Assembly (NCBI GenBank): GCA_964397195.1 | Contig: CAYNGY010000005.1 | Coordinates: forward strand, 685-64,684 | Direction of reading: 5' to 3' | Origin: an uncultured Gammaproteobacteria bacterium | Lineage (GTDB): Bacteria; Patescibacteriota; Patescibacteriia; SBBC01; CAIJZX01 | DNA length: 64,000 nucleotides | Part shown: piece after piece, positions 29,167 through 60,477 of the stretch | Position numbering within the stretch: position 1 is the stretch's first letter | Layout: each line of letters begins with the position of its first letter | The notes under the pieces: generated by a model | Databases searched by the model: none | What the model was told of the DNA's origin: nothing | Seen by the model: the letters and a program-made list of their open reading frames with translations, nothing else | Position numbers and translations under genes: made by a program

Positions 29167-29423
29167 GCCGAAACGGGGCTCGGCGCGGCCTTGGGTAAGG
29201 TCGCGTCCTCAACGATCATCCCCGCGTTATCAAAGCCGACGACCTGGGTGCGATCTATCACGAGCTCCTGGTTGACCGCCGATGGGAGGAGGCGATGCGC
29301 GCGGACCACATATGATCGAATTGTTTGCGTGTCCTGATCAATCACGAGGTCAGCAACCGTGCCGAGGTGTTGTCCTGATTCGGTGCGAACATTCGTGCGG
29401 ATAAGGGCGCGCGGATTGCTCAT
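29163..29423 (-). CDS. small PRC-barrel-like hypothetical protein
   Basis: 86 aa; GTVADLVIDQDTQTI ... ELVIDRTQVVGFD pattern resembles a PRC barrel. Occupies the position usually held by jag downstream of yidC. 4-nt overlaps on both sides. Confidence 0.35.
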   Translation of the reverse strand: MSNPRALIRTNVRTESGQHLGTVADLVIDQDTQTIRSYVVRAHRLLPSAVNQELVIDRTQVVGFDNAGMIVEDATLPKAAPSPVSA

Positions 29424-30205
29424 CCTTGGATAATTTCCTGTTTTGGCGCCGCGCTCTTTTGTAGCGGGTGCGTTTTGAGGAAAATATATTGTTGGATGAT
29501 GCCAAAGATCGACGAGGAAATCCAGTACAGCCCTAATCCGGCCGGGAGGGTGTAGGTGATATAGGCCATTAGGAGGGGCAGGGTATACATCATCGATCGG
29601 TTCATGGTGGCGGTCATGGCCTCATCCTTGGCGCCAGGCGTAGTCGGCTCGCTCGGCGCGGCGATCATTTTTGTTTGCCAGAACTGGGCCGCCCCGGTGA
29701 GGACCGCCAAGATAATGTTCCCGGCCGTTTTAACGGCGGTTAGATCAATGATCCCGAAGAATGAGCCGTTGAGTGCATGGGCGCTGAAATACGCTTGAAG
29801 GCCGCTGGCCAAGTCCTTGATGTGTTCCGGTTTCAAGAAACCGGCGGCGTCGACGGAGATACCATTTCGGAATACCTGATAAAGCTGATAGAAGACCACG
29901 AGCTGAATGATCATCGGCAAACACGAAGAGGCCGGGTTGACGCGACTTTCTTTGTACAGTTTCATTTGTTCGCGGGCCAAGCCTTCTTTGTCGCCCTTAT
30001 ATTGCTCCTGAATCGCCTTGAGCTTCGGCTGAAGCGACTGTAGTTGCCGCGAAGCGCGCATCTGCGCCAAGGTTGGGTAGTACAAGACGACGCGCACCGC
30101 GAGGGTGATGAGAATGATGGCCAGGCCGAGATCGTGGCCGGGCAAGACCTGTACTAGCCAGAGTAGCGCGTTGTAAAGTGGAACGTAGATGAAGCTGTGG
30201 AACAT
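29420..30205 (-). CDS. yidC: membrane protein insertase YidC (short, Oxa1-like form)
   Basis: Five TM helices, conserved YidC/Oxa1 core, in the canonical rpmH-rnpA-yidD-yidC neighbourhood. Confidence 0.85.
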   Translation of the reverse strand: MFHSFIYVPLYNALLWLVQVLPGHDLGLAIILITLAVRVVLYYPTLAQMRASRQLQSLQPKLKAIQEQYKGDKEGLAREQMKLYKESRVNPASSCLPMIIQLVVFYQLYQVFRNGISVDAAGFLKPEHIKDLASGLQAYFSAHALNGSFFGIIDLTAVKTAGNIILAVLTGAAQFWQTKMIAAPSEPTTPGAKDEAMTATMNRSMMYTLPLLMAYITYTLPAGLGLYWISSSIFGIIQQYIFLKTHPLQKSAAPKQEIIQG

Positions 30206-30208
30206 AAA

Positions 30209-30487
30209 TTAAGGTATTGGATCAAAACCGCCCGCAGACCACGGATGGCAGCGGCCTATCCGTGCCGCCCCGAGCAGGGCGCCCGGTACGAGGCCGTGTT
30301 TGTTGATAGCTTGTCGAGTGTATTCTGAACATGTCGGGTGGTACTTACACGCGCCGTGGGGAAAGGCCGCGCGGAGCGGGCCGTGGTCTGGTGACAGCGT
30401 GTGCTGGTACGCGCGAATAATCGCGTTGGCGATGCGCCGCGGTATAGACGATATCGAGAAGGTGGTTGGTGAGACGATTGAGATCAT
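30209..30487 (-). CDS. yidD: membrane protein insertion efficiency factor YidD
   Basis: AIIRAYQHTLSP...CKYHPTCSEY...RCHPWSAGGFDPIP hallmark motifs. Start uncertain; the track ORF overlaps the rnpA 3' end by ~140 nt. Confidence 0.75.
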   Translation of the reverse strand: MISIVSPTTFSISSIPRRIANAIIRAYQHTLSPDHGPLRAAFPHGACKYHPTCSEYTRQAINKHGLVPGALLGAARIGRCHPWSAGGFDPIP

Positions 30488-30767
30488 GGGTTGAGAGGCC
30501 GACTATGGCCGGTCGAGTGTAGAGGATAACGTCGAGGCCGGGTTCGAGCCCACGACGCTGGATGATCGCGCGGAGCCGTCGTTTAACGGTATTCCGGGTG
30601 ACCGCTAACTTGGAAACAGTCTTTCCAACCACGAATCCGGCGCGGCCGACGGATGTAGGCGAGATCGCCGCACGGACGACAAGCGCCGCATCCCGGGCAA
30701 CGATCCGCGAGCGGCTCATATTTACGTACTCTCGTTCTCGACGGACGCGGTGTACTCGGGGGAGCAC
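30345..30767 (-). CDS. rnpA: ribonuclease P protein component RnpA
   Basis: RNase P protein pattern (GFVVGKTVSKLAVTRNTVKRRLRA, the RNR-like basic motif). Directly downstream of rpmH. Confidence 0.8.
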   Translation of the reverse strand: MLPRVHRVRREREYVNMSRSRIVARDAALVVRAAISPTSVGRAGFVVGKTVSKLAVTRNTVKRRLRAIIQRRGLEPGLDVILYTRPAIVGLSTHDLNRLTNHLLDIVYTAAHRQRDYSRVPAHAVTRPRPAPRGLSPRRV

Positions 30768-30768
30768 G

Positions 30769-30906
30769 TTAAACGCTCAGTCGTTTCCGGCCTTTGGCGC
30801 GGCGGCGCTTCAGTGTGCGACGTCCGGTCGGGGTGGCTTGGCGCGCGCGGTACCCGTGAACTCGGGCGCGGCGGCGGGCCTTTGGTTGATAGGTTCTCTT
30901 TGGCAT
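30769..30906 (-). CDS. rpmH: 50S ribosomal protein L34
   Basis: [45 protein letters not shown] is near-identical in pattern to bL34. The track ORF carries a spurious 30-aa N-terminal extension. Confidence 0.9.
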
Positions 30907-31066
30907 AAGCCTCGGCAGTTTACCAGTCCCGCGTATTACGGTCAAAGGTGTAATATAATTACCCACACCTTCCCCAGGAAATCCACAGCATATCAACCTT
31001 TTGGCTAATTTTGGCCATTTTTTAGCCCTGTGGATTATGCTATTATTGCTTTCTAGTGAAAAACCT

Positions 31067-32431
31067 ATGAATCAGGATCAGTTATGGCAAGCGGCATTAG
31101 GTGAGCTTGAGCTGCTAATAAGTAAGGCAAACTTCACCACCTGGTTTAAGAACACCTTTATTGTCTCTGTCGACGGCCCGAAGGCCGTCGTTGGCGTTCC
31201 AAATGGCTTTACGAAGGCTTGGCTGGAGACAAAGTACAACCCGCAGATCATTCAGGCCCTGACCAATGCAAACGGGGGGCCAGTTACGGCCGTTGAATAC
31301 CGCGTCGAAAGTCGTGGTCGTGTTACCCCCGGTTCCGCCGCCGCGTCCGCCCCAACTGGTCCGGCCGCACCGAGGGTCGTGCAAAAAGTGGCTAATGTTA
31401 GCGAAAAGACGTCCGTTGACCCAAAATACGTCTTTGACACGTTTGTGGTCGGCAAGGGAAGCGAGTTAGCCTATGCCGCGGCCAAGGCGGTCGCCGATCA
31501 ACCCGGGCAAGCCTATAATCCGCTCTTTCTCTACGGGGGTGTCGGGCTTGGAAAAACCCACCTCATGCAGGCCATCGGGAACCATATTTTGGCTAAGAAT
31601 AGCCAATCTCGGGTGTTTTACGTCTCTTCTGAGCGGTTCACAAATGAGTTTATTCAGGCGGTTTCTCACGGAAATGCTGAAAAATTCAAGCAATTTTACC
31701 GAAACGTTGATGTTCTGTTAATTGATGATATCCAGTTTTTGGCCGGAAAAGAGGGAACTCAGGAGGAGTTCTTTCATACATTCAACGCCCTTCATCAGGC
31801 AAAAAAACAAATCGTGGTCACTTCTGACCGTCCGCCAAAATCCATTTCCGCTCTTGAGGCCCGGCTCGTCTCCCGTTTCGAATGGGGGATGATCGCCGAT
31901 ATTGCCCAGCCCGACCTAGAAACCCGGACGGCTATTTTGAGTGCCAAGTGCCGAGAAAAGAACTACTTACTCGACCCGGAAATTGTTCAGTACGTCGCCT
32001 CGACCGTCCAGAGCAATGTACGCGAGCTCGAGGGGGCGCTCAATCGGATTATTGCGTATCATAATCTCAATCAGACAACGCCTTCACTCGACAGCGTGAA
32101 GTCGCTGATTGGGGCCCTGTCGCCGTCTCTCAAGCGAGGCGGCATCACCCCGCGACAAGTAATCACCACCGTGGCGCAGTTCTACGACATTGCCCTTGAG
32201 GACATTGTTGGGACGAGTCGGAAGAAAGAGCTCGTTGAACCGCGTCAGATGGCGATGTATCTGTTGCGTGAAGAGCTCCACGCGTCGTTTCCGGCCATCG
32301 GGCACGAGCTCGGCGGTCGCGATCACACAACCGCGATGCACGCGTGCACGAAGGTGTCGGCCCAAATCGAAACGAACGAGAAGTTGCGACAAGATTTCGT
32401 CCTCTTAAAGCAGAAGCTCTATGGCGGATAA
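31067..32431 (+). CDS. dnaA: chromosomal replication initiator DnaA
   Basis: AAA+ Walker [11 protein letters not shown], Walker [10 protein letters not shown], sensor motifs, C-terminal DNA-binding domain. Start at [14 protein letters not shown]; the track start 31001 is probably an extension. Confidence 0.9.
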
Positions 32432-32696
32432 GTTGTGAGCATCGTGTGCTCATCTATCCCTGAGTGGTGGATGAACGTGTGCCCCATTCAGTGTAGTACC
32501 TGTGTGTCGCCGACGAGTTACCCACCGCCCCATCGATCCCGGCCGCGCTCGTCCCCATTTCGTCACCCTTTCCCACACTTCATTGTCCACGTCGTCACTG
32601 CGTGTATCGGTGCTCATTACAGGGCCGTCCGGGATTCTCCCCACTCTCCACACCCCTTATTACCACCACCACAATACATAATCATTTTATAACCGT
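32432..32696. other. candidate oriC (dnaA-dnaN intergenic): DnaA-box-like 9-mers and a terminal AT-rich stretch
   Basis: 265-bp non-coding spacer with TTGTCCACG and TTCATCCAC-type DnaA-box variants, a C-rich tract, then CACAATACATAATCATTTTATAACC. Additional boxes AAATCCACA and TGTGGATTA flank the dnaA promoter region (30985-31040). Confidence 0.35.
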
Positions 32697-33797
32697 ATGA
32701 AGTTCATCTGCACGCAGGAAAATCTTTCACGAGGACTTCACGTTGTGTCTCGGGCTGCGAGCAAAAATGTTTCCCTCCCGATCTTGAACAACGTCTTACT
32801 CATCGCCGAGGGTGGCGCGGTTCGTTTGCAAACTACGAACCTGGAAGTGGCGATTACGACAATCGTTCGAGCGAAAATAGAAACTGAGGGTCGATATACG
32901 GTTAATTCGCGACTCTTTACCGACTTCGTGAGCACGGTAAAGGGCGACCATGTGACAGTGCAGATTGTGGGCGACGGCCTGCAGGTTCAATCGGATCAAA
33001 CCGAGACGGTGATTCGGGGTATGCCAGCCGATGAATTCCCAATTCTTCCGATCGTGCAGCAGGGGGAGTCGGTTGAAGTGCCGGCGAGTGTATTCTCTCG
33101 TGCGCTTCGAGAAGTGGTATTTGCTGTAGCGACAGATGAGACCCGACCGGAAATTTGTGGAGTATACTTATCGCTTCAACAACGGGAGTGCAACTTGGCG
33201 GCGACAGATAGCCACCGATTGTCCGAGCGGACTATCGTACTTCCGGTCGCTACGACCGCGGCAGTACACGCGATTATTCCGGCGCGGGCGGCCCAAGAAA
33301 TTCTACGGATTACCGAGGACGAGAGCGCATCAATGATTTTACAAATTGATGAGCAACAGGCGAGCGTACAATGTGGTGAAACGACGCTGGTGACTCGGCT
33401 AATCGAGGGGCAGTATCCGGAATATCGGCAACTTATTCCGAGCTCATTTGAGGTAAAAGTGACGCTCAAGAAGGATGAATTTCTTGATGCGGTGCGGGCG
33501 GCCAGCCTGTTTTCCCAGCCGGGCATCCATGACATAGCGATTAAAGTTGGAGCGGATAAAGATATCCAAATATTTGCCACAAGCACCCAGGCGGGGAGAC
33601 ACACCGCGACCGTCGCGGCCGAGGTTGACGGCGGAGAAAAAGAAGTTGTATTTAATAGCCGCTATGTGATTGACGGTATACAAAATCTTCCGGGTGACGA
33701 GATCCAGATGGAGCTTGGTGGGGCCCAGGCGCCGGGCGTATTGCGTCCGACGGCGACTGTTGGAGCGGTATACTTGATTATGCCGATTCGGCAATAG
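32697..33797 (+). CDS. dnaN: DNA polymerase III beta sliding clamp
   Basis: MKFICTQENLSRGLHVVSRAA... has the three-domain beta-clamp pattern, immediately after dnaA. Confidence 0.9.
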   Translation: MKFICTQENLSRGLHVVSRAASKNVSLPILNNVLLIAEGGAVRLQTTNLEVAITTIVRAKIETEGRYTVNSRLFTDFVSTVKGDHVTVQIVGDGLQVQSDQTETVIRGMPADEFPILPIVQQGESVEVPASVFSRALREVVFAVATDETRPEICGVYLSLQQRECNLAATDSHRLSERTIVLPVATTAAVHAIIPARAAQEILRITEDESASMILQIDEQQASVQCGETTLVTRLIEGQYPEYRQLIPSSFEVKVTLKKDEFLDAVRAASLFSQPGIHDIAIKVGADKDIQIFATSTQAGRHTATVAAEVDGGEKEVVFNSRYVIDGIQNLPGDEIQMELGGAQAPGVLRPTATVGAVYLIMPIRQ

Positions 33798-50130: not shown

Positions 50131-51688
50131 CATTCATCGGGCGGTATTCATCGTTGTGGCGATTGTTTTCTCGTTGATTCCGTTTGTGACCGGCCGTCTG
50201 ATGCAACCAGCGGGAACGTACTACTACGCCGCGTATAATCGAGCCCCTGGCGATACGTCTATTTACTACCGCTACATTGAACAAGGCCGAACCGGCGGCC
50301 CACTGATGCGAGACTTCTTTACCACCGATGCGCATCCGGCGATACTATGGCAGCCGGTGTGGTGGGCGGTTGGTCGGACCGCGGAGACATTTGGGATTTC
50401 TACTCCAAACGCTTTTGCCGGAGCCCGTGCCGTCGGGGCAGCTGTGTTAGCCGCTACTATGTGGTGGGCGGCTGGGCTCCTCTGGCGCGATCGACGCCGA
50501 GTGTGGTCGGTATGGGTAGGGTACTTTGGAGCTGGTGTGGGAGGATGGATGATCTTCCTATTTCGATCGTGGACGAATGCGTGGCATCTTCCGCCATACG
50601 ATCTTTGGGTTTCCGAGGCATATCCGTGGTTAAGCTCGCTCGCGAGTCCACATTTCCTGCTGGTTACTGCCGGGCTATTGGCCGTGATGATTGGGACCGA
50701 ACAGTGTCACTCTCGGCGATCTTCAATATGGTTGGGGGTTGTGCTCTTAATGCTCACGTCGATTCATCCATTCCATATACTGACTATTGGGCTGACATGG
50801 GCGGGCCTGACGATTGTAGAGGCGTTAACGGCCGCGCCAGAGTGGCGGTTGCGTCTGGTGCGTCGCATCAGCATTGGAGTGTGGGCGATACCGTCACTCG
50901 TCTACTACGCGCTCACGTGGTTCCAGCCGATCATGTTGGAGCGTGCAACGCAGAACATCAATTCGACGTTTATCTGGATCAGCCTGGTTGGTTTTGTACC
51001 ATTGATGATTGCCGCCTTGATGGCGTTTCGGTTCCGTCGAGACCGTTCGATTTACATTCTGGCAATGTGGGGCGCGGCGATTATGCTAGCCACAATCTTG
51101 CCGCTCGATTTTCAACGACGATTTGTACAACCCTTGGCCGTGCCGCTCGGCCTCTTGGGTGGGTTTCTTTTTTCGGTGTGGTGGTCGGCTGGGCGCCTGA
51201 AACGAGCGGCGGTGATCGCGCCGTGCCTCCTGATGGTGGCCAGTCCAATTGCCGGTATCGCCACAGCAATCCACACTATCCGTCTTGATAGCGTCTCCAC
51301 TAGTGCAAACTTTACCTATCTTCGGCCGGAGTATGTGCGGCTACTAGACGCGCTAAAAACACACCCCGAGTGGTCGCCGGTCCTCACCTCTCGAATCGAG
51401 GGAAACATATTAGGAGCCTTCGATCCGGTGCGAGTGTACCTTGGACACGGCGTTGAGACGACGCGCTTTAAAGAAAAATCCGATCAGATGAAACACTTCT
51501 TCACGGATTGGTCGTCGGGGCAACAGGCTTCATTTTTGCGGAGCACGGGAGTTTGTTCGGTCTTGGTGACGCCGTACACCCAAACCTACGGCACGGCATT
51601 TCCGGGTCGCGACGTGAGAATGGTGCCACTTTTTTCCGCTGGCGATCTCGTGTTGTATTCGGGTGGGTGCGAGGCTAGTGGCCGATAG
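50117..51688 (+). CDS. polytopic membrane protein (GT-C-like, unassigned)
   Basis: About 12 TM helices plus a C-terminal soluble domain. Overlaps the upstream gene. Confidence 0.4.
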   Translation: MVRPSIHRAVFIVVAIVFSLIPFVTGRLMQPAGTYYYAAYNRAPGDTSIYYRYIEQGRTGGPLMRDFFTTDAHPAILWQPVWWAVGRTAETFGISTPNAFAGARAVGAAVLAATMWWAAGLLWRDRRRVWSVWVGYFGAGVGGWMIFLFRSWTNAWHLPPYDLWVSEAYPWLSSLASPHFLLVTAGLLAVMIGTEQCHSRRSSIWLGVVLLMLTSIHPFHILTIGLTWAGLTIVEALTAAPEWRLRLVRRISIGVWAIPSLVYYALTWFQPIMLERATQNINSTFIWISLVGFVPLMIAALMAFRFRRDRSIYILAMWGAAIMLATILPLDFQRRFVQPLAVPLGLLGGFLFSVWWSAGRLKRAAVIAPCLLMVASPIAGIATAIHTIRLDSVSTSANFTYLRPEYVRLLDALKTHPEWSPVLTSRIEGNILGAFDPVRVYLGHGVETTRFKEKSDQMKHFFTDWSSGQQASFLRSTGVCSVLVTPYTQTYGTAFPGRDVRMVPLFSAGDLVLYSGGCEASGR

Positions 51689-53555
51689 TGGTGGATCCTG
51701 ATTCGAAGATGGTCACGCGGGCTGTGACGGGCGTAAACGTGCGCCATCGATCGAGGCGAAAAGCGCCGTTCATGCTGCCCCAGCTGTAGTCTAGTGTGGT
51801 AACAGATTGACCCGAAAGAACGGGGAGGCGGTAGGTGGTGATCCACTCATGCCTTTCGTCCCAACTCGACATTGGCCACCCGCCTTCGCCAATGATGCGG
51901 GTTGTCTCTTGGGATACGCCACCGGGCGTTTTTTGCCGGAGCCGAATGGACATCGGTTCGGTCGGTCTCTTGCCACCGCTCCACCAAATCTTGACCATGA
52001 GCTGGGTCGTTGTCTGCCACGCCTCAACGCGAGTGATTGTAGTTGCGGTGGCGGTTGATGGTTTGCCAATCACCACAAAATCTTCCGGCAGGTTCCCATC
52101 GCGTCGATAAACCGCAACCGAGTCTTGAAGATATGCGAGCCGTAATCCTTGGCTCTCTAGCAGGGTCCGAATCCGTTGCTCGCCAGTTTGACCGAGGAAC
52201 AGCGTGTCACGGTAGAAATATTGAAACTCGTAAAATTGTTTCCAATCGATAACCACCGCATCGAGGTCGCTTGGTACCTTATACGGAGCCTCAGTGTATT
52301 GCCGCTTCCCGAGGTAGACGTAGTTCAGGGAATAGATTGCCGGTCGATTCGATAGGCTTGGGAGTGTCGAAAACGTGGTGGCGACCCGGTCGGTTGGTCT
52401 AATGACCGCGAGCGCGCCTCGAAGCGCCGCCGAGCGCGTACGGTCGGCGTCACGTCTGGGTTGCCATGGTTGTTCTATTGGACCAAACGCTAGATGGAAG
52501 TACAGCGGACTGACTACTGCCAGAATAATGAGCAGTGCGCCAGAAATCTCCCGGGGCACGCGGTGTCCAAGTGAGAATGCCTGACGTTGCTCGAGCGCAG
52601 ATATGGCGGCCCAGGCGAGAAACGGAATAAACGGCACGACGTAGTGAAGGTGGAGAATGGAGACGGGCGACGAGCCAATTAAGAGCAGCTGGGCAAAGGA
52701 AAGCGCGGCTGGAATTAATTTCCGCATCTGGAGAAATGGCAGTAGTCCGAAGGCGGCCATTAATCCGAAGAACGTTCCCCAATTGTTTATGGCGAAAACA
52801 TGTTGGAGGAAGAGCATAGGATGGCGAAAGGGGAAGGTGGCCATATCGATCGGCCGTGAACCGAGCCAGGCGATGAAGCCGACAAACTTATAGTCACCGA
52901 GTGCGTTGGCATTGGCGATGAGCAGATGCGAAATAACAAACCAGACGAGCCCGAAGCCGCCGATACCCGCCCACCACTTGCGGGGAACGCGATCAAGCGC
53001 AGCTAGTGCGCCCCAGCTGATGGCAATGAGCGGAAGATCCTCGCGGACGAGGCACGTTACCCCCAGAAGTATGGCCCAGGTGGCCCAGCGTTGTTGCTGA
53101 TAGGCCAAGATGGCCGCTAGGAGGAGCGGCAGGGCTAGGGTAAGCGCGTGAAACTCGTACATGGCCACGTTGTAGATGAACGGGTGCGCGAGCCATATCC
53201 CGGCCGCAGTAACGCCGGCCCAGGCACCCAGTCGTCTTTGGGCGATACGGTAGATACACCATCCGCTCGCCGCAATGGCGAGGGTTTGCATCCAAAGTAA
53301 GAGCAGTGGCGACGACCAGAGACGGTATAGCGCCCCAATGGGTATTAAGATGAGCTCATAATGGTCGCCAAGGTAGCTTGGGTCGTGGATGGAGTTGGCA
53401 AATCCGTGTCCATGGGCAAGCGACCAGACGGTTTGCGTGTATATGCCAAGATCAAGACCGTTGTAGCCAAACGATTGATACTTTTTCCACTGCAGGCCGG
53501 CGATTCCGACCGTAAAGATGGTGAGACAGATAGCGAGGACAATACCTGAACGGCG
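51675..53555 (-). CDS. polytopic membrane protein with large C-terminal extracytoplasmic domain (DUF2079-like GT-C candidate)
   Basis: Start at MRRSGIVLAICL (the track ORF extends 50 aa further). About 12 TM helices then a ~230-aa beta-rich domain. Confidence 0.4.
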   Translation of the reverse strand, partial: RRSGIVLAICLTIFTVGIAGLQWKKYQSFGYNGLDLGIYTQTVWSLAHGHGFANSIHDPSYLGDHYELILIPIGALYRLWSSPLLLLWMQTLAIAASGWCIYRIAQRRLGAWAGVTAAGIWLAHPFIYNVAMYEFHALTLALPLLLAAILAYQQQRWATWAILLGVTCLVREDLPLIAISWGALAALDRVPRKWWAGIGGFGLVWFVISHLLIANANALGDYKFVGFIAWLGSRPIDMATFPFRHPMLFLQHVFAINNWGTFFGLMAAFGLLPFLQMRKLIPAALSFAQLLLIGSSPVSILHLHYVVPFIPFLAWAAISALEQRQAFSLGHRVPREISGALLIILAVVSPLYFHLAFGPIEQPWQPRRDADRTRSAALRGALAVIRPTDRVATTFSTLPSLSNRPAIYSLNYVYLGKRQYTEAPYKVPSDLDAVVIDWKQFYEFQYFYRDTLFLGQTGEQRIRTLLESQGLRLAYLQDSVAVYRRDGNLPEDFVVIGKPSTATATTITRVEAWQTTTQLMVKIWWSGGKRPTEPMSIRLRQKTPGGVSQETTRIIGEGGWPMSSWDERHEWITTYRLPVLSGQSVTTLDYSWGSMNGAFRLDRWRTFTPVTARVTIFESGSTTIGH

Positions 53556-53638
53556 CATAGTCCGTATAGTATACCCTGAAATACCCCCATAAACGACTAC
53601 CGCCCCCGGTGGGGGGCGGTAGTGTAGAAGAGTTGAAG

Positions 53639-54040
53639 TTAGGCCTCGGTAGTCGTGTTTGTCACATTCGACGTGGTTCGAGCCACGAAGATGACGACGG
53701 CCCACGAAAGGAGGACGATGATCAAGCCGATGACGGCCGCAGAAATTACTTTCTTGGCGCGCTCAACTTTTTCTTCATTTCCGGCAGCGGTCAACCAGAT
53801 GAATCCGCCGAAGATGATCATGATAACCGCAACGAGGGTCAGTAATCCGAGCACCAAGTTCAGTGTGTTGAGAACGGCTTTCTTCAGATCGGTATCCTTT
53901 AAACCAGTTTTTGTCTGGAGGGATTCGATGCTGAACGGCGTGGCGTCTTGAGCCATGACTGCGACTGGAGTCGCGATGGCCATGACGGCGCCGGCGATCA
54001 ATGCGAGTTTTGCAAATTTTTTCATTTGAGTCTTTGTCAC
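53639..54040 (-). CDS. TrbC/VirB2-like (T4SS-pilin-like) small secreted membrane protein, paralog A
   Basis: Signal peptide, two hydrophobic helices flanking the conserved core GGFIWLTAAGNEEKVERAKKVISAAVIGLIIVLLSWAV; Thr/Asn-rich C-tail. Confidence 0.55.
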   Translation of the reverse strand: MTKTQMKKFAKLALIAGAVMAIATPVAVMAQDATPFSIESLQTKTGLKDTDLKKAVLNTLNLVLGLLTLVAVIMIIFGGFIWLTAAGNEEKVERAKKVISAAVIGLIIVLLSWAVVIFVARTTSNVTNTTTEA

Positions 54041-54071
54041 CCCCTTTCAGGTTTCAACACCGCCGAGGGCA

Positions 54072-54473
54072 TTAGCCCTCGGTTCCAGGTGTGTTTGTTA
54101 CGTTGGCTGCGGTGCGGGCCACGAAGATCACGATTGCCCATGCGAGCAAGATGATAATCAGACCGACGACAGCGGCGGAGATAATCTTCTTCGCCTTTTC
54201 GACGTTCTCTTCATTACCGGCGGCTGTGAGCCAGATAAACCCGGCGTAGATGATCAGCACAACGGCGATCAAGGTCATGAGCCCGAGGACGAGCTGAATG
54301 ACGTTTAAGACCGTCTGCTTGAGATCGGTATTCTTTAAGCCGACCTTGGTGCCGATCGATTCAATGCTGAACGGCGTTGCGTCTTGGGCCTGAGCGGCCA
54401 AAGGCAACGCAACGGCCATCACTGAGCCGGCAGCCAGGGCGACTTTTGCAAATCGCGCCAATTTCATAGGCAT
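54072..54473 (-). CDS. T4SS-pilin-like paralog B
   Basis: About 75% identical to paralog A (AGFIWLTAAGNEENVEKAKKIISAAVVGLIIILLAWAIVIF). Confidence 0.55.
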   Translation of the reverse strand: MPMKLARFAKVALAAGSVMAVALPLAAQAQDATPFSIESIGTKVGLKNTDLKQTVLNVIQLVLGLMTLIAVVLIIYAGFIWLTAAGNEENVEKAKKIISAAVVGLIIILLAWAIVIFVARTAANVTNTPGTEG

Positions 54474-54544
54474 GATGCGTTTATTTAGTAAATTTTCTGT
54501 TGTTGCGGCATTGTTGATAAGTCCGCGAACCCCAGAGAAGTTTG

Positions 54545-54574
54545 ATTATACCACAAATCGATATCTGGTGCGAA
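54545..54574 (-). promoter_or_regulatory. promoter for paralogs B-A: TTCGCA-N16/18-TGGTATAAT (extended -10) on the minus strand
   Basis: The minus strand reads ...ttcgcaccagatatcgatttgTGGTATAATcaaac... in the 138-nt spacer between paralogs C and B. Confidence 0.45.
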
Positions 54575-54611
54575 TAGGCGAGTGTTTTTTATTTGTCCTC
54601 TTCCCCGATCG

Positions 54612-55004
54612 TTACCCGGTCGTCGTTTTTGTGACGTTCGAGGCGGTACTCGCAACGTACGCCACGATGGCCCAAGCTAAAATAATCACAATCATGCCAA
54701 TAACGGTGGCGGAGATGATACTTTTGGCTTTTTCAACATTCTTTTCATTCCCGGCGGCGGTGAGCCAGATGAACCCGGCGTAAATCATGAAGACCACCGC
54801 CAAGAGTGTCATGAACCCCAGTACAAATTGAATGGTTTTGATCGACGTTGACCGTAAATCTCCGCCGCCGAGGCCGGTCACGCTTCCTACATCCATGAGG
54901 CTGAACGGCGTTGTCTCCTCTTGCGCGGCGGCGGCCCATGGGAAGAACAACGATGCGACGATGAGCGAGATGATGATGTTCTTTCCGGAGGCGAGGTTGC
55001 GCAT
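54612..55004 (-). CDS. T4SS-pilin-like paralog C
   Basis: Same architecture with core AGFIWLTAAGNEKNVEKAKSIISATVIGMIVIILAWAIV. Confidence 0.55.
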   Translation of the reverse strand: MRNLASGKNIIISLIVASLFFPWAAAAQEETTPFSLMDVGSVTGLGGGDLRSTSIKTIQFVLGFMTLLAVVFMIYAGFIWLTAAGNEKNVEKAKSIISATVIGMIVIILAWAIVAYVASTASNVTKTTTG

Positions 55005-55022
55005 AGACTTCGGGTTAGGCCG

Positions 55023-55391
55023 TTATTTCGCGGCGGTAGTTAGGAAGCTCGTGAAGACGAATTTGATTACGGCCCAACTGATGAGAATGACAACGATCCC
55101 GATGGCGGCCCAGACCAGCGTATCTTTTGCCTGTTTTATTTGTTTTTCATTACCGCCCGAGGTGAGCATCATCAGACCACCCCAGATAAACATGAGCGTG
55201 GCAATGATAGCAATAACGCCGAGAATGGATTTAACGACACGTGAGATGAGGCAGGTTGCGTCATTGCAGCTACCAATTGGGTTTGGGATGGAAATACTCG
55301 TTTTAGCGGTTTGCGCGTGGACCACGCCGGGCTGTCCCGCGACGGATAATGAGAGACAGATGAGGCCGGCGGCGATAAGAGAGCGAATCAT
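55023..55391 (-). CDS. T4SS-pilin-like paralog D (divergent)
   Basis: Core FIWGGLMMLTSGGNEKQIKQAKDTLVWAAIGIVVILISWAV. N-terminal region has 2 Cys. Confidence 0.5.
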   Translation of the reverse strand: MIRSLIAAGLICLSLSVAGQPGVVHAQTAKTSISIPNPIGSCNDATCLISRVVKSILGVIAIIATLMFIWGGLMMLTSGGNEKQIKQAKDTLVWAAIGIVVILISWAVIKFVFTSFLTTAAK

Positions 55392-55401
55392 AAATGGCGA
55401 G

Positions 55402-56778
55402 TTAACGTAAGGTGGTCAAAGGAAGTCGGCGGCACTGGCTACCAATGGCGCTCGAGCAGCGGACTTGGCATGTACCCGCTTGGAAGCTCAGCGAGTTGCC
55501 GCCGGAATCTTGAGCGAGATTGTTGCACCAATAGCTCGAAACATACTCAAAACAGTTATGGTCAGCGCCCTGGGGGTACAGATCTTTTGATTGGCAGAAC
55601 CCACAGCGATTGTTGGTGTCACCGCCGTTGCAAGACTTGCCAGGGAGAAAATCATTCGCCCCGCTTTTATTTAGCGCCAAACAGGTCTTGGCGCTGACAT
55701 CAGGGGTGCAGTAGAGATCGTTTTCGCCGCTGTTGATAATACAGCAGCCCGGGTCAGTACTTGAAAACTTTTCTTCGAGCGGCCCAACCAGAGAGGATAC
55801 ATCTTGAGCCTGAGGCATGAAGCTTACGGTTGTGCCGATATCGGCACCAGTACATGCCGTGGGTGTTAATGGTCCGGGCATGAACAAGGTCGCGGCCGTG
55901 GCGGCGTCAACCTCGCCAGACGGGGAGAGATTGTTAGCCAGCTGAAAGGCTCGAACGCCATTCAGTGTTTGTGGTCCATAGCACGCATCGACCGTGTTGA
56001 GACAGCCGAGTTCTTTGAGCTTCTTTTGAATCTTCGCGACATCACCATTTAGGTCACTACCGGTGTCGGCACAATAGATGTGATTACTACAGCCCTTATC
56101 GTAGGTGTCGTTGTTTGAACTTCGACAGTTTGTGCGGTTCTCGGCCCCGCTATTGTCGCCGCTAAACGGTTTTTGCTCGGCTAGACCAGGGAACAAGAGC
56201 GCGATCGGGCCGGCCCAGATCTCCTTTGCCTTACTTGTTGTTCCGGTCAGGGCCATGACTGTAAAATTGACGATCACGTAGGCAGAGAAACTGATAATGA
56301 TGCCGGTTATGGTGCCAGCGATAATTTTCTTTCCGGACTCGACTTTCTCGCCTCGGCCCCCAGCGGTGAGAAATTGGAACCCGGCCCAAATAAACATCAG
56401 TACCGAAAGCACGGCGAGGATGCTGAGCCCCCATTGAGACAGTTTTACGAATTGTGAAACCGCATCGGCGATTTGGAACAGGCCGGTCGTTTCGCGAGAA
56501 TAATTGGACGTGCCCGAAGCCGTAGTCACGACGCCGCTCAGGATACAGGTCTTGCCGCCGCCGTAGGTACAGAGCGTGTCCTGACGATCCCGACACTGGA
56601 TAGTCAGCCCCGACCATTCACAGGTGTGGCCGCTGTCTTGAAGAATCCACTCAGTTGAGTCGCAGACAATACTGTCCGCCCCCTGGACGTCATTGCACAA
56701 TTCGACAGCGTGAGCCGGGGCGGCAAACAAGAGTAGTCCAGCAATACCGGCAATGAGAGAAATCCGTAGTCGGATCAT
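55402..56778 (-). CDS. large chimeric pilin-like protein: Cys-rich N-domain, T4SS-pilin-like TM core, peptidoglycan-binding (PG_binding_1) domain, Cys-rich C-domain
   Basis: Signal peptide. Core FIWAGFQFLTAGGRGEKVESGKKIIAGTITGIIISFSAYVIV. PG-binding-like GDVAKIQKKLKELGCLNTVDACYGPQTLNGVRAFQLANNLSPSGEVDAATAATL. About 30 Cys in total. Confidence 0.5.
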   Translation of the reverse strand: MIRLRISLIAGIAGLLLFAAPAHAVELCNDVQGADSIVCDSTEWILQDSGHTCEWSGLTIQCRDRQDTLCTYGGGKTCILSGVVTTASGTSNYSRETTGLFQIADAVSQFVKLSQWGLSILAVLSVLMFIWAGFQFLTAGGRGEKVESGKKIIAGTITGIIISFSAYVIVNFTVMALTGTTSKAKEIWAGPIALLFPGLAEQKPFSGDNSGAENRTNCRSSNNDTYDKGCSNHIYCADTGSDLNGDVAKIQKKLKELGCLNTVDACYGPQTLNGVRAFQLANNLSPSGEVDAATAATLFMPGPLTPTACTGADIGTTVSFMPQAQDVSSLVGPLEEKFSSTDPGCCIINSGENDLYCTPDVSAKTCLALNKSGANDFLPGKSCNGGDTNNRCGFCQSKDLYPQGADHNCFEYVSSYWCNNLAQDSGGNSLSFQAGTCQVRCSSAIGSQCRRLPLTTLR

Positions 56779-58151
56779 AGGGTCGTCTCCACTTGCTTGG
56801 CGGCGAGATTCAGCGCCGATTCGGGGGTCTCGCCGTCGACCGTGATGGCGTTGATCATATTGGTGATATACGTTTCGGCTTTCACGCCGTCACCTCCGCG
56901 GTACCAGTTTCGGGCGGTCAGGAGTTGTTCAGCATAGACGGACTTCGTGGCTTCAGTTTTCTGCTTGGCTAGGACCGACTTCAGGGCGGAGAGGCGGTCG
57001 GTTGTTTTGAGGTAGGCGGGAACATTCTCGGAGTTGGCGAGGAAGCGCAGGAAGGACCAAGCGGCGACAGACCGTTTCGCTGTTTGGGCGGCTTTCGAGA
57101 CCATGCCGACATTGTAGATGGCGGCGTTAATAAATCGGATGTTTCCGGTGACGCCGTCGCGATCACCTTGTGTGTCTAGGTGCAGCATCGGGGATGTGGT
57201 CCAGTTCAGCCCGCTGGCGGCAATGGATGCCCGATCCGCATAGGTCCCGAAGAAGTAGGCAATCTTGCCCTTTTTGAACGCATCAAGTGCGTTTTGCTGA
57301 TCGGCATTCCAGCTGTAGGTGGCCTTTTTTGGGGATGAAAAGCTCGTGTAGAACTTAATGGCGACGAGGCCGGCGGCGTCGTTGAAGAGCGCCTTCTTAG
57401 CGGACGTGTTGATCATTTTTGAACCATTCTGCATCATCAACAGTGTCACGAGCTCGTTGGCGTGGGGGATGTTTGTGCTAGTGCCAAGGGCGGCGCCGGA
57501 TTGGACGATGGCGGCGCTGTCATTCTGGACTGAGAGACCCTTTTGTTCGATCTGAGTAGTGAGCTCCGTCCATGTTTTTGCTGGCTCGAAGACCCCGGCA
57601 TTATTTAAGAGATCCTTGTTTACATAGGTGACGAGCGTGTCCATGGAGAGCGGGAGCCCCCAAATTTGGGTACCAGAAAGGACATCGTCTGACACGGCAT
57701 CGACGTACCACTCTTTCATTTGACTCACCGTTGGCGCCTTGACCAGCGGTTTGGTGATGGTGGTTTGGGGTCCGAAGATGCCCTTGGTGGTAGCAACAAC
57801 GGAAACACTCAAGTCGGCTGGCATCGGAATCGCGTACGGTTGCATAGCTCCGATCCAAGAGCTGGGAACAAAAAAGATGTCCGGCCCTTTTCCTTGGGCC
57901 CAGCCTTCGAGGAGCCGGGTCGCGTAGTCTTCGCGGCGAATTTTAGTGACCTTAATGGTGACGTAGGAATGTGTTTCGCGGTAGGTCTTGATAGCGGCGT
58001 TGAACGTATTAACGTCATCGTCGGTGACCCACATCGTCAACGAGGCGCGGGTAACCGTTTTTGGTTTATTACCGATCACCCCAGTTAAGAGGAGGACGAT
58101 AATCGTCAACGGGATGAGGAGAATACCGACGATAATGAACAGACGCTTCAT
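56775..58151 (-). CDS. extracellular solute-binding protein (ABC SBP family 1, sugar-type), orphan
   Basis: N-terminal TM/signal anchor plus SBP_bac_1-like two-lobe pattern. No permease or ATPase genes adjacent. 4-nt overlap with the large pilin-like gene. Confidence 0.65.
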   Translation of the reverse strand: MKRLFIIVGILLIPLTIIVLLLTGVIGNKPKTVTRASLTMWVTDDDVNTFNAAIKTYRETHSYVTIKVTKIRREDYATRLLEGWAQGKGPDIFFVPSSWIGAMQPYAIPMPADLSVSVVATTKGIFGPQTTITKPLVKAPTVSQMKEWYVDAVSDDVLSGTQIWGLPLSMDTLVTYVNKDLLNNAGVFEPAKTWTELTTQIEQKGLSVQNDSAAIVQSGAALGTSTNIPHANELVTLLMMQNGSKMINTSAKKALFNDAAGLVAIKFYTSFSSPKKATYSWNADQQNALDAFKKGKIAYFFGTYADRASIAASGLNWTTSPMLHLDTQGDRDGVTGNIRFINAAIYNVGMVSKAAQTAKRSVAAWSFLRFLANSENVPAYLKTTDRLSALKSVLAKQKTEATKSVYAEQLLTARNWYRGGDGVKAETYITNMINAITVDGETPESALNLAAKQVETTL

Positions 58152-58156
58152 ACGGG

Positions 58157-59041
58157 TTAGTACGGTTTGCGGATATAAGCTCGAATTGAATCGCGCATTT
58201 CTTTGTGTTGGAGCGCAAAATGAATGTTTGCTTTGATATATTCGGCCTTATCTCCGGTATCCCACCATCGGCCGGTGAGCTGATGGGCGTAGACCTTTTC
58301 TCGCCGGGCGAGGATATTAACGCCATCAACGTAGTAGATTTCACCTTGGAGCGACGGTTTTGCGCGTTCGAGGGCGCGGAATAGTTCCGGCGTAAACACG
58401 GCCCCGCCAAGCATGGCGTACGGCGATGGCGATTTTTCGCGAAGCGGCTTCTCGACGATGCTCGAAATGCGGAACGTCTTCCCTTTTACTTTGTCATGCG
58501 GCTTCATCATGCCGTATTTCGAAAAACGATCTTCGCTAACCGGAAGAACGCCGATAATGCTGGAATGATAGCGGCGATACGCGTCAATGAGCTGTTTCGC
58601 GACCGGTACGCGCGCCTCAAAGAAATCATCGCCCCAGCACATCACGAATGGTTCATCGCCAACTACTTCTTTGGCCATGAGGATCGCATGACCATTTCCA
58701 AGCATCTTGTTTTGGCGGACAAAAACAAACTTTGCTAACCGCGAGATGCGGTCAACCTCTTTGAGCTGTTCCAGTTTATTATTTTCGCGCAGGAGCTGTT
58801 CAAGTTCGCCTGAGTAGTCGAAGTGGTCTTCGACGGCCCGCTTGTTGCGCCCGGTAATAAAGATAATCTCCTCGATACCGGCGGCAACTAATTGCTCAAC
58901 GACAATTTGGACGATTGGCTTATCGACAATCGGGAGCATTTCTTTTGGCTGGGCGATCGTCATGGGCAAAAAACGCGTCCCAAATCCAGCGACTGGAACG
59001 ACGGCTTTGCGTATTTTTGTGTTTTTTCTTTTGGTTGGCAT
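58157..59041 (-). CDS. galU: UTP--glucose-1-phosphate uridylyltransferase
   Basis: KAVVPVAGFGTRFLPMTIAQPKEMLPIVDKP is the GalU signature N-terminus. Confidence 0.85.
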   Translation of the reverse strand: MPTKRKNTKIRKAVVPVAGFGTRFLPMTIAQPKEMLPIVDKPIVQIVVEQLVAAGIEEIIFITGRNKRAVEDHFDYSGELEQLLRENNKLEQLKEVDRISRLAKFVFVRQNKMLGNGHAILMAKEVVGDEPFVMCWGDDFFEARVPVAKQLIDAYRRYHSSIIGVLPVSEDRFSKYGMMKPHDKVKGKTFRISSIVEKPLREKSPSPYAMLGGAVFTPELFRALERAKPSLQGEIYYVDGVNILARREKVYAHQLTGRWWDTGDKAEYIKANIHFALQHKEMRDSIRAYIRKPY

Positions 59042-59059
59042 GGTCAGACTATACCACTT

Positions 59060-60349
59060 TTAGGCGGCTTTGTCACCTTGAGCCTTACGCTGGCGCATCA
59101 GGGCGCGAAGAGCACGTACCGGGTTTTTAGATTGCCGGATACCGGCGAGAATCTCCGACCGGGTGATTCCTCGGTCATGCGCGTCGTCAGCCACGGCGAG
59201 AAGCTGGCCCATACCGGCGCCGGGTTTTATGCCGAGACCAATCAATTCATGACCGCTTAGTACGTGCGGCGGCGGCTGATGCAAGAGGTGATATCTTTTG
59301 GCAGTGCGGGCTAAGGTACGGCTCGTAATCGGCCGGAGACAGCCGAGGAGGCTGACAGCGTGGCCAACTGGTAGCGGATCCAGCCGACGGGCCAGCGAAA
59401 ATACCTCTTGGCGACCGATTTTTTTTGGTAATCGGTGGGTGGCGGCCGTTAAGCGTCGGATCTGGTGGTATGTGTTTCTGGAAAATCCAAGCCGCAAGAG
59501 GAATGGTTGTTGAGATTTGACCGGAATTGCCCGGAGGAGGAGAGACCAAAAAACTATCTGACGGTGCTGAGCTGGGAGAGACGGGAGATGGTCGACGGCG
59601 CGGTACAGCGTCTCCGGAAAGCGCACCGTTCTTCCGACGAGCGGCGAAAAAACATCCACCGTAGTCGCAATACGTAAACCGAGCGATGGTTTTTTTGCTA
59701 GTAACACGAACTTTTCCCACTCGGCGAATATCCGCGCCGCGGGTAGCTCAATAATCGAACCGGCCATTTTTTTCATTAGCCTGAGTGACTTCAGATCGGC
59801 GCGGAGCGCGAATCGAGCGGCGAATTGCACGCCTCGCAACAGCCGCAGCGGGTCATCGCCAAACGTCTGTGCGTCAACGATGCATAAGATGTGACGACGG
59901 AGGTCGCGCTGGCCACCAAATGGGTCGAGTACAGTATTGGTGGAAAGATTGATGGCCATGGCGTTGATGGTAAAATCGCGACGTCGTAGATCATCAACGA
60001 TTGGAATGCGCGGGTTTGCGTGAATGGCGAAGCCGCGGTGGCCGGGCGCGATTTTTGATTCACGCCGGGGCAGCGCAATATCGACCGTTGTGCGAGTAGT
60101 GATCAGGCGTAGGGTGCCAAAGCTTCGGCCAACATCGTGGACGTGGCCGTATGACGAGGCAATATCTTTTACCGTAGCCGGCGATAGGCCCGCAATGACC
60201 AGATCGTAGTCGTGGGTTGACTGTTTTGATAGTAGATCACGGACTGCGCCACCAACTAAAAAAGCTTGGCCGCTAGCGCGAGCACATTTTAATCCGAGGT
60301 GGCGGATAACCGGCGGGAGATGGAGCGTGAACGACGAGGCGGCGGGCAT
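59060..60349 (-). CDS. cca: CCA-adding tRNA nucleotidyltransferase (class II, Pol-beta head + probable HD-like C-terminus)
   Basis: GGAVRDLL...DYDL head motif, RRDFTINAMA, DPFGG..DL. Start at MPAASSF (~60349). Confidence 0.8.
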   Translation of the reverse strand: MPAASSFTLHLPPVIRHLGLKCARASGQAFLVGGAVRDLLSKQSTHDYDLVIAGLSPATVKDIASSYGHVHDVGRSFGTLRLITTRTTVDIALPRRESKIAPGHRGFAIHANPRIPIVDDLRRRDFTINAMAINLSTNTVLDPFGGQRDLRRHILCIVDAQTFGDDPLRLLRGVQFAARFALRADLKSLRLMKKMAGSIIELPAARIFAEWEKFVLLAKKPSLGLRIATTVDVFSPLVGRTVRFPETLYRAVDHLPSLPAQHRQIVFWSLLLRAIPVKSQQPFLLRLGFSRNTYHQIRRLTAATHRLPKKIGRQEVFSLARRLDPLPVGHAVSLLGCLRPITSRTLARTAKRYHLLHQPPPHVLSGHELIGLGIKPGAGMGQLLAVADDAHDRGITRSEILAGIRQSKNPVRALRALMRQRKAQGDKAA

Positions 60350-60477
60350 ACCACTACGGTACGTGGTGCGAAGAGCCTTGACAAGGAGCCGGGTTTTTGG
60401 TAAGCGTACTGGCGGCACCCATGGAAGCGCTCTTCAGATTCGAGGAACCCGGCAGGCTGGGATACAGGGAGGTGCGC

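Follow-up and report, generated by a model that had tools for sequence, protein, structure and literature searches.

A sugar-type solute-binding protein and a distinct lead pilin head VirB2-like pilin arrays in ABY1-class Patescibacteria

What could an array of VirB2-like pilin genes do on an ordinary chromosome when it is headed by a gene for a solute-binding protein (SBP) and not by genes of a type IV secretion system (T4SS)? This question is raised by a stretch of 64,000 nucleotides (nt) from contig CAYNGY010000005.1 (positions 685 to 64,684, forward strand; henceforth the window), in which the gene for a family-1 SBP is followed on the minus strand by five consecutive pilin genes, termed E, D, C, B and A in the order of the run (Table 1). 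The nearest relatives of both the SBP and E were found in Kerfeldbacteria and in other metagenome-assembled genomes (MAGs) of the GTDB class ABY1. As described below, the SBP and the first, or lead, pilin were found as a pair in all 153 evaluable loci of two scans taken together. Our favored reading, to which we assign a probability of about 0.55, is that the locus represents a Kerfeldbacteria-lineage, ABY1-class variant of a VirB2-type surface-filament module of the Patescibacteria, equipped with the SBP and the lead pilin as an accessory pair.

The pairing was analyzed in both directions. In the SBP scan, an alignment of the SBP was compared with one genome per GTDB species, and the best 80 of 283 species matches (32–52% identity) were kept, which comprised loci from Kerfeld-, Uhr-, Falkow- and Buchananbacteria, among others. 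Open reading frames (ORFs) in these loci were searched with a hidden Markov model (HMM) of the pilin core that was seeded from the window. A pilin gene was located directly downstream of the SBP gene in 76 of the 76 species loci which were evaluable, i.e., which extended for 400 nt or more past the SBP gene. The gap between both genes was zero or negative in 27 loci, being exactly −4 nt in 17 of them, and amounted to 1–40 nt in 41 others. In the converse scan, an alignment of first pilins was compared with metagenome contigs, and a gene for the SBP, either intact or truncated where the contig stops, was found directly upstream of the lead pilin gene in each of the 77 loci with enough upstream sequence to be evaluated. 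The association persisted at an SBP identity of 29%, in two contexts where an extended pilin of 918 amino acids (aa) or of at least 391 aa followed. Independent confirmation that the first pilins had been correctly called came from Pfam, where PF18895 (T4SS_pilin) matched 19 of 20 sampled first pilins and the gathering score was exceeded by 17. Word-index protein searches yielded few distant SBPs and were far less informative than the GTDB and metagenome scans. Fusions of SBP and pilin genes were also considered and discarded, as the longer SBP entries turned out to be merely N-terminally over-extended or lipoprotein forms.

The genes that flank the pair varied with the lineage (cca and galU; ROK plus transketolase; SMC plus ComM; gyrA), so inherited synteny alone fails to explain the pairing. 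In addition, the first pilin was the sole pilin in 11 of the 53 loci with at least 6 kb of downstream sequence, and in one locus (L065) the remaining array was displaced by unrelated genes. These loci indicate that the conserved unit is composed of the SBP and one pilin. Neither an SBP–pilin association nor one between a peptidoglycan-binding domain and VirB2 was found in the literature searched, the journal coverage of which was incomplete, and the linkage of an SBP with a lead pilin that carries a variable head appears to be new.

With regard to the pilins themselves, a comparison across loci indicated that the lead pilins constitute a distinct orthologous subfamily: the best cross-locus match was a first pilin for 79 of 81 first pilins, compared with none of 273 other pilins. 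Every first pilin was nearer to the first pilins of other loci than to its own paralogues, and in every relative the first pilin was orthologous to E by position. Both groups also differed in the consensus of their loop, which was '…liS.G.s.kv.kgK' in lead pilins and '…WMTA.GNeekv.kAK' in the other pilins. In terms of length, 40 lead pilins were unextended (≤170 aa), 28 comprised 171–300 aa and eight exceeded 300 aa; the longest one, with 918 aa, was observed on the contig of P0213. The extensions were C-terminal and Cys-rich, typically with around ten cysteines in 90–125 aa, and PG_binding_1 was found in the heads of the Kerfeldbacteria type and in those of two further loci (L038 and L059). 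The chimera encoded in the window is the Kerfeldbacteria version of a lead pilin with a lineage-variable head. We also compared the Uhrbacteria-type head with the Kerfeldbacteria-type C-terminal domain, and no homology was detectable (hhalign probability below 1%).

A previous reading of the window, made from its letters without database searches (the sequence-only reading), had described E as a chimera of a pilin core with peptidoglycan-binding and Cys-rich domains, and HMM matches, a structural model and the cysteine count all upheld this description (Table 1). Of the 24 cysteines in E, six lie in the N-domain and 18 past the hairpin. The AlphaFold2 (AF2) model was built on an alignment of 33 sequences and reached a mean confidence (pLDDT, predicted local distance difference test) of 77.5; it replaced a model built on six sequences, which was unusable (pLDDT 48). 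It comprises a leader helix, a β-type N-domain of low confidence, the hairpin, a linker and a confidently folded C-terminal domain. No analogue of this last domain, with its 13 cysteines, was found in the PDB. The N-domain was absent or different in two relatives (P0005 and P0006). Close homologues of E were few (36–52% identity) and shared its gene arrangement, as did the homologues of the SBP. The chimera family is of modest size: approximately 30–35 of the top 150 matches from a search of 1.84 billion representatives were full-length (clusters at 50% identity). In VirB2, both termini of the hairpin lie outside the membrane and are exposed on the exterior of the pilus, where additions to them can be displayed. 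By analogy, both added domains of E should lie outside the membrane, in agreement with their cysteines and with wall binding.

As the sequence-only reading had proposed, the small proteins of the array are VirB2/T4SS-pilin-like. All five array proteins passed the Pfam gathering score of PF18895 (26.6 bits; the corresponding scores are 23 bits for PG_binding_1, 27 for SBP_bac_8 and 27.9 for PF04956, TrbC/VirB2). Since five neighboring ORFs matched one family at E-values of 1e-8 to 1e-12, chance is ruled out. With the NCBIfam model NF045849 (cut-off 40 bits), D passed, and A and B were just short of it (39.3 and 37.1 bits, respectively). In sequence and alignment, A to E each show a Sec-type N-terminal hydrophobic leader and two long hydrophobic helices with a short charged loop. 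The class III signal peptide of type IV pili (T4P; G-FTLIE) was absent from A to E, the N-termini of which are of the Sec type, with Ala-x-Ala-like sites.

In ten Kerfeldbacteria-type relatives, the first position was occupied by the chimera type, the second by a D-type pilin (47–70% identical to D) and the rest by A-type pilins. Three orthologous pilin classes were thus recognized in a fixed order, i.e., the lead pilin E, then D, then two to three A-type copies. This fixed order, together with the conservation of the classes, fits a partition into major (A-type) and minor (D and E) subunits better than it fits antigenic variation. Two details of the sequence-only reading had to be revised here. 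The core motif that it had assigned to all four small paralogues was common to A, B and C only, D being divergent (30% identical to A). Likewise, A and B are not the recent duplicates that they had been taken for, since they share only 70% protein and 69% DNA identity and the core of B is nearer to its position-3 orthologues in other species (72–87% identity) than to A. The A-type tails (those of A, B and C, and of orthologues in L002, L005, L007 and L011–L018) carry a conserved, predicted extracellular 'VA[RN]TT[AS]NVT…' segment with an N-x-T sequon. TrbC and VirB2 undergo C-terminal processing, and the NVT tail could be either a processing site of this type or a site of pilin glycosylation. 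The largest array was observed in L087 (CAZAJQ010000004.1), where 16 pilin genes follow the SBP gene.

The solved structures closest to the SBP were those of sugar binders, namely 4QRZ, Lin1841 (5YSB) and MalE, with E-values from 5e-24 to 1e-13. Seven aromatic residues, namely W41, W194, Y279, W281, W365, W416 and Y417, were invariant in the SBP family, and Asp, Asn, Gln and Lys residues were also kept; at the level of sequence, the conserved aromatics suggest that the sugar pocket is retained. In the window, the protein bears an N-terminal hydrophobic anchor, a transmembrane (TM) helix, without the lipobox cysteine, whereas distant members of the family have a lipobox. Compared with the solved SBPs of the CUT1 type, the family has approximately 20–30 extra residues near positions ~105–150, and this insertion is a candidate partner-binding element. 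A search of the window and of the flanking sequence of 90 loci (~1.5 Mb) revealed no permease with an EAA loop, nor did Pfam tables for seven independent contexts contain an importer permease. In line with this, the proteins with an LSGGQ motif in the window and the 90 loci were of the SMC, UvrA or exporter types only. The description of the SBP as a local orphan linked to pilins, already part of the sequence-only reading, is therefore supported well beyond the window, and for annotation purposes the pilin-linked SBP family should not be taken as evidence of sugar importers in these genomes. Another SBP of a Patescibacterium, SEML1_0634 of Southlakia epibionticum (Table S1 of PMC10633639), may also act outside a classical importer.

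Pilin arrays as such have been described in Patescibacteria. Predicted pilins encoded in series within the T4SS cluster of S. epibionticum were shown to be essential by Wang et al. (2023; PMC10633639); this six-gene array is the only one tested by transposon sequencing (Tn-seq). Its genes, SEML1_0014–0019, adjoin a VirB6-like gene, and according to the tables of that study no SBP is present in the cluster. Quiñonero-Coronel et al. (2025; PMC12102498) reported 441 arrays with 2–11 pilin genes in 383 assemblies, mostly from Microgenomatia and Saccharimonadia and less so from ABY1. The same survey found VirB4 in 2,417 of 3,035 Patescibacteria genomes, an almost complete absence of relaxases and no PrgB-like adhesin, and its arrays were scored as 'near virB4' (legend of Fig. 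S9). T4SSs with 'potential to elaborate conjugative pili' are also covered by a 2025 review (PMC12857230). Given these published tandem arrays, a pilin array without conjugation genes is of a known kind, and the suggestion in the sequence-only reading that no such system had been defined has to be withdrawn. Under the definition used in PMC12102498 (at least two PF18895/PF04956 genes, in tandem or with one non-pilin gene between them), the five consecutive genes of the window constitute an array. This array does not lie near virB4 as scored there (±20 coding sequences; Fig. S9), with the window reaching more than 50 kb on one side and 6 kb past the cca side of the operon on the other. As many ABY1 arrays lie away from virB4, they have probably been under-counted by virB4-centered surveys.

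The array of the window resembles the published ones (SEML1_0014–0019 of S. epibionticum, that of N. lyticus TM7x and the 441 arrays of the survey) in its tandem PF18895 genes, its chromosomal location and its monoderm host from the candidate phyla radiation (CPR), as well as in the signal peptide followed by a two-helix hairpin, the divergent paralogues and the lack of a relaxase. In contrast to the S. epibionticum array, which abuts VirB6 in a T4SS cluster devoid of an SBP, it is remote from VirB4-like genes. Unlike the published arrays, it begins with the genes for an SBP and for a dedicated lead pilin with a putative extracellular head, and its paralogues are up to 70% identical, compared with a published maximum of 54%. 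With VirB2, TrbC and TraA (PF04956), the array proteins have in common their small size, Sec export and a hairpin of two helices joined by a short polar loop; they differ in that the host is monoderm, that no VirB5 tip protein, cyclization or processing enzyme was identified, and that the literature searched contained no report of 280-aa extracellular domains or of pairing with an SBP. The Mbov_0395 family from integrative and conjugative elements (ICEs) of Mycoplasma (NF045849) is likewise VirB2-like and belongs to a wall-less or monoderm lineage, and its HMM matched at or near the cut-off. However, these proteins are encoded by single genes in mobile ICEs with VirB4 (TraE), whereas the window holds a chromosomal multi-gene array without transfer genes. 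The VirB2 paralogues of Bartonella and Anaplasma (cited in PMC12102498) likewise form tandem sets, to which a diversifying effect on surface interactions has been attributed, but they sit in canonical VirB operons of diderms. In the window type, the classes are conserved in a fixed order across species, which argues for a division of labor more than for antigenic variation.

As for the SBP, it shares with the CUT1 proteins (4QRZ, Lin1841 and MalE) a full-length match to the SBP_bac_1/8 fold family and the conserved aromatics. It departs from them in lacking an adjacent permease or ATPase gene in the 90 loci, in being always followed by a pilin gene, in its extra residues and in its TM or lipobox tether. 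Other SBP-fold proteins are tied to a T4SS in a sensor or receptor role: PrgZ is the pheromone receptor of pCF10 and uses the chromosomal Opp permease, and ChvE is the sugar sensor for VirA. The analogy with these two proteins is functional only, as they belong to other SBP families and are not encoded beside pilin genes.

According to the favored reading, the module, which is conserved across the ABY1 class, would comprise a membrane-tethered, sugar-type SBP, a dedicated lead VirB2-like pilin and a variable number of ordinary VirB2-like pilins. The A-type proteins would be the major subunits of the filament, as in the essential T4SS pilin array of Saccharibacteria, and would be polymerized by a VirB4/VirB6 machine, the genes of which would lie at another site of the genome, with D and E as minor subunits. 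E could be placed in the filament or at its base or tip, with its head exposed, because the termini of VirB2 lie on the outside of the filament. This head may bind peptidoglycan, either that of the cell's own wall, as an anchor, or that of the host, as an adhesin. The SBP, located at the membrane surface beside the pilin pool, would bind an oligosaccharide and serve as a glycan sensor, an adhesin or an assembly partner of the lead pilin, and not as the receptor of an ATP-binding cassette (ABC) importer. The roles suggested in the sequence-only reading, a wall-anchored chimera at base or tip and an SBP co-opted as a structural or receptor component, are plausible. We infer the formation of a filament and its dependence on a distant VirB4/VirB6, and likewise a function of the pair in glycan sensing, adhesion or assembly. 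That no PrgB-like adhesin was found in Patescibacteria (PMC12102498) leaves room for an adhesin-type role.

Several observations weigh against this proposal. No VirB4-sized Walker-A protein was found within ±10 kb in the 80 species loci, and the Walker-A proteins that were present were SMC, ComM, UvrA, Clp, FtsH and RecG-like. Among the ORFs of at least 250 aa that were scanned in the 64-kb window, there was no VirB4, VirD4, VirB6, VirB11, relaxase or BPD_transp_1, where two proteins without any match (546 and 528 aa) might hide a very divergent VirB6. Both results agree with the sequence-only reading, which had noted the lack of VirB4, VirD4, VirB6 and relaxase genes and had set the array apart from canonical conjugative T4SS loci. 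Among 11 carrier genomes in the published Table S1, all of them draft MAGs, five were scored VirB4-positive and six VirB4-negative, compared with 80% presence overall. This split is no more than a hint that the module may do without VirB4. As a decisive test of VirB4 dependence it was rejected, given that the genomes are drafts and that the scoring was inconsistent, with two carrier genomes of near-identical size being scored differently. In addition, D was the only array protein that matched PF04956, with 25.1 bits and thus below the threshold of 27.9 bits. Finally, a T4SS pilus has been imaged in no Patescibacterium (PMC12857230). On a related note, fast-diverging ORFs of ~690–840 aa with ~7–8 predicted TM segments were observed beside Uhrbacteria-type arrays (Table 1). 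They had no Pfam or NCBIfam match and no homologue in the window, and they may be divergent VirB6-like proteins.

The missing VirB4 also bears on an alternative in which the module is a self-contained, VirB4-independent apparatus, where the SBP would dock on a VirB2-like oligomer or filament nucleated by the lead pilin, thereby forming an SBP-coupled conduit or a sensor for host glycans or lipid-linked sugars. SBPs normally hand their ligands to a membrane partner, and such an apparatus would fit the obligate and often translationally coupled pairing, the loci in which only the SBP and the lead pilin are present (11 of 53), the lack of an ABC permease in 90 loci, and the fact that VirB4 is never near the module and was scored as absent from six of 11 carriers. 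The homologous pilins of Saccharibacteria, however, sit inside a T4SS cluster, VirB4 has been detected in the majority of Patescibacteria, many ABY1 genomes included, and the negative scores come from draft MAGs; moreover, we know of no precedent for VirB2-like proteins that work without an ATPase. An ABY1-specific, VirB4-free apparatus that couples an SBP to a VirB2-like filament or oligomer, with the head of the lead pilin as a determinant of host specificity, is in our view doubtful. If this were true, an SBP would feed or gate a membrane or surface structure in a manner not recognized before, for instance to allow ultra-small epibionts to sense host glycans or to capture nutrients. We were more skeptical of the idea that the SBP serves as a conventional receptor for an ABC importer with its permease and ATPase encoded elsewhere, as for PrgZ, and that its adjacency to pilin genes reflects shared envelope regulation. 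The full-length CUT1 match, the conserved aromatics and the co-transcription with the housekeeping genes galU and cca are compatible with this idea, but not so the adjacency to one single pilin subfamily down to 29% SBP identity while other neighbors change, the validity of the pairing in both directions, the frequent 4-nt start/stop overlaps or the absence of permease motifs from the ~1.5 Mb of flanks.

The presence of a galU homologue upstream of the SBP gene in about half of the loci, and of polytopic proteins (DUF2079, GT87 and PMT_2) that flank or interrupt many arrays, raised another possibility, namely that the pilin-like proteins are non-filament membrane or wall parts of an envelope glycan-assembly locus. 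In such a locus, they would work with GalU, with glycosyltransferases of the DUF2079, GT87 and PMT_2 types and with a peptidoglycan-binding subunit, and the SBP would handle an oligosaccharide on the external side of the membrane; the sequon in the 'TT[AS]NVT' tail of the A-type pilins and the PG_binding_1 domain would be in keeping with it. A large polytopic protein was nevertheless encoded within 4 kb in only 25 of 44 evaluable loci, which makes this link much weaker than that between SBP and pilin, and both the T4SS-pilin homology and the essential Saccharibacteria array point to a filament or to secretion, so that we regard this possibility as unlikely, even more so than that of an importer receptor. 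As to ordinary conjugation machinery of an ICE or plasmid, which the VirB2 fold and the family shared with Mycoplasma ICE proteins (NF045849) might have evoked, this explanation is effectively refuted. The window belongs to a regular part of the chromosome, close to the replication origin, and contains dnaA, dnaN, yidC and the genes for ValRS, TyrRS, RuvB, TsaD, PBP1 and glycogen metabolism. Its nucleotide composition is even across the 64 kb, and it contains no relaxase, type IV coupling protein (T4CP) or VirB4. This chromosomal module was encountered in no fewer than 76 species, and its carriers include the complete genomes CP066698.1 (Falkowbacteria) and OZ246408.1. Pilin D had no match when compared with plasmids, and relaxases are rare in Patescibacteria (PMC12102498).

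Table 1. Coordinates of the array, its neighbors and related features. Positions are those of the window, except for the rows that name another locus.
Feature	Position	Strand	Evidence or remark
cca (CCA-adding / polyA polymerase family)	59060-60418	-	PolyA_pol 85 bits; heads the co-directional run
galU-like UTP-glucose-1-phosphate uridylyltransferase	58157-59041	-	NTP_transferase 102 bits; 5 nt upstream of SBP
SBP, family-1 (CUT1, oligosaccharide-type), membrane-tethered, 458 aa	56775-58151	-	SBP_bac_8 67.4 bits (gathering score 27)
Pilin block A to E, five genes	53639-56778	-	
Lead pilin E (chimera), 458 aa	55402-56778	-	T4SS_pilin 32.4 bits; PG_binding_1 44.7 bits
E residues 1-24, Sec-type signal peptide (…APAHA/VE)	56707-56778	-	sequence; helix 2-18 in model; cleavage site inferred
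E residues 25-100, variable beta-rich N-domain, 6 Cys	56479-56706	-	strands 51-98, low model confidence
E residues 103-178, two-helix hydrophobic hairpin (pilin core)	56245-56472	-	Pfam match 112-172; model helices 103-138 and 143-178
E residues 245-298, PG_binding_1	55885-56046	-	44.7 bits vs 23; HMM and structure (three-helix fold)
E residues 299-458, Cys-rich C-terminal domain, 13 Cys	55405-55884	-	no solved-structure analogue found
Pilin D, 122 aa, second position, short tail, most TrbC-like	55023-55391	-	T4SS_pilin 48.4 bits; NF045849 42.9 bits
Pilin C, 130 aa, A-type, NVT tail …STASNVTKTTTG	54612-55004	-	T4SS_pilin 33.8 bits; 49% identity to A
Promoter-like TTCGCA-18-TATAAT (TGGTATAAT element), extended -10 TG, in 138-nt C-B spacer	54545-54574	-	consensus match only
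Pilin B, 133 aa, A-type, NVT tail	54072-54473	-	T4SS_pilin 43.9 bits
Pilin A, 133 aa, A-type, NVT tail, last gene of the operon	53639-54040	-	T4SS_pilin 44.4 bits
GC-rich hairpin CTACCGCCCCC-cacc-GGGGGCGGTAG then TCGTTTAT, terminator-like operon end	53597-53622	-	read directly from sequence; absent from the list of the automatic scan
DUF2079 polytopic membrane protein, directly downstream of array	51675-53558	-	DUF2079 183 bits
Conserved protein without family match, ~530-545 aa	50102-51688	+	
Conserved protein without family match, ~530-545 aa	47231-48871	+	
yidC-dnaA-dnaN origin region	29420-33797		no virB4
PilB-type T2SSE ATPase	25851-27539	-	406 bits; adjoins the origin region
~690-840-aa ORF, locus L044	12732-14810	-	
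~690-840-aa ORF, locus L049	11314-13800	-	
~690-840-aa ORF, locus L057	16259-18694	-	
~690-840-aa ORF, locus L067	13057-15498	-	
~690-840-aa ORF, locus L073	7408-9924	+	
~690-840-aa ORF, locus L077	15782-18205	+/-	

With regard to the layout of the locus, the run cca–galU–SBP–E–D–C–B–A is co-directional throughout, with intergenic distances of 18 nt between cca and galU, 5 between galU and the SBP gene, −4 between the latter and E, 10 between E and D, 18 between D and C, 138 between C and B, and 31 between B and A. The co-directionality of the five pilin genes and the 4-nt overlap (ATGA) between the SBP gene and E had been correctly read from the sequence. An internal promoter in front of B and A had been proposed as well; the corresponding TGGTATAAT element does exist, but promoter-like sites around the array were not above chance (six found vs. 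4.7 expected from shuffled sequence). A homologue of galU was present upstream of the SBP gene as 47 ORFs across the 90 loci, and cca was syntenic only among Kerfeldbacteria-type relatives.

Downstream, the array is followed by the gene for a DUF2079 protein, which we take to be a glycosyltransferase of the GT-C type and which was also found in this position in Kerfeldbacteria-type and some other loci. Its start probably lies near 53558 (MRRSGIV…) and not at the listed GTG at 53705: an ORF beginning at the listed codon would run through both the terminator-like hairpin and the end of A, and the start at 53558 gives a protein of ~627 aa, which matches its relatives. The remaining scanned ORFs of the window were housekeeping or envelope-related, save for the two proteins of 546 and 528 aa without any match; the latter is rich in hydrophobic segments, and in Kerfeldbacteria-type relatives the region downstream of the array holds both of them in synteny with GT87 and DUF2079. 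The window also encodes several polytopic membrane proteins with DUF2079, GT87 or PMT_2 matches and a PilB-type T4P ATPase adjoining yidC–dnaA–dnaN, a position at which virB4 is often found in other classes of Patescibacteria (PMC12102498). This ATPase belongs to a system separate from the pilin array. In Falkowbacteria-type loci, SMC was observed to precede the SBP gene (L027, L029, L033, L039, L041, L056, L060, L065, L066, L068 and others), and in L065 the genes upstream of the SBP gene encode SMC and then a ComM-like Mg-chelatase ATPase. Competence and recombination genes near T4SS components have been reported in ABY1 (PMC12102498). We also observed that many representative MAGs of GTDB which carry the module are titled 'uncultured Gammaproteobacteria bacterium' (L011, L012, L020 and others), and a few 'Bacillota' or 'Acutalibacteraceae'; these titles look mislabeled.

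In the only species tested, epibiotic growth requires the pilin array. The invariant and often translationally coupled pair of SBP and lead pilin provides testable handles on what the pilins do, namely the glycan of the SBP, the target of the head (own versus host wall) and the dependence on VirB4. The pairing thereby gives a new lead on how ultra-small Patescibacteria use VirB2-like pilins, which is relevant to work on both T4SSs and the CPR.

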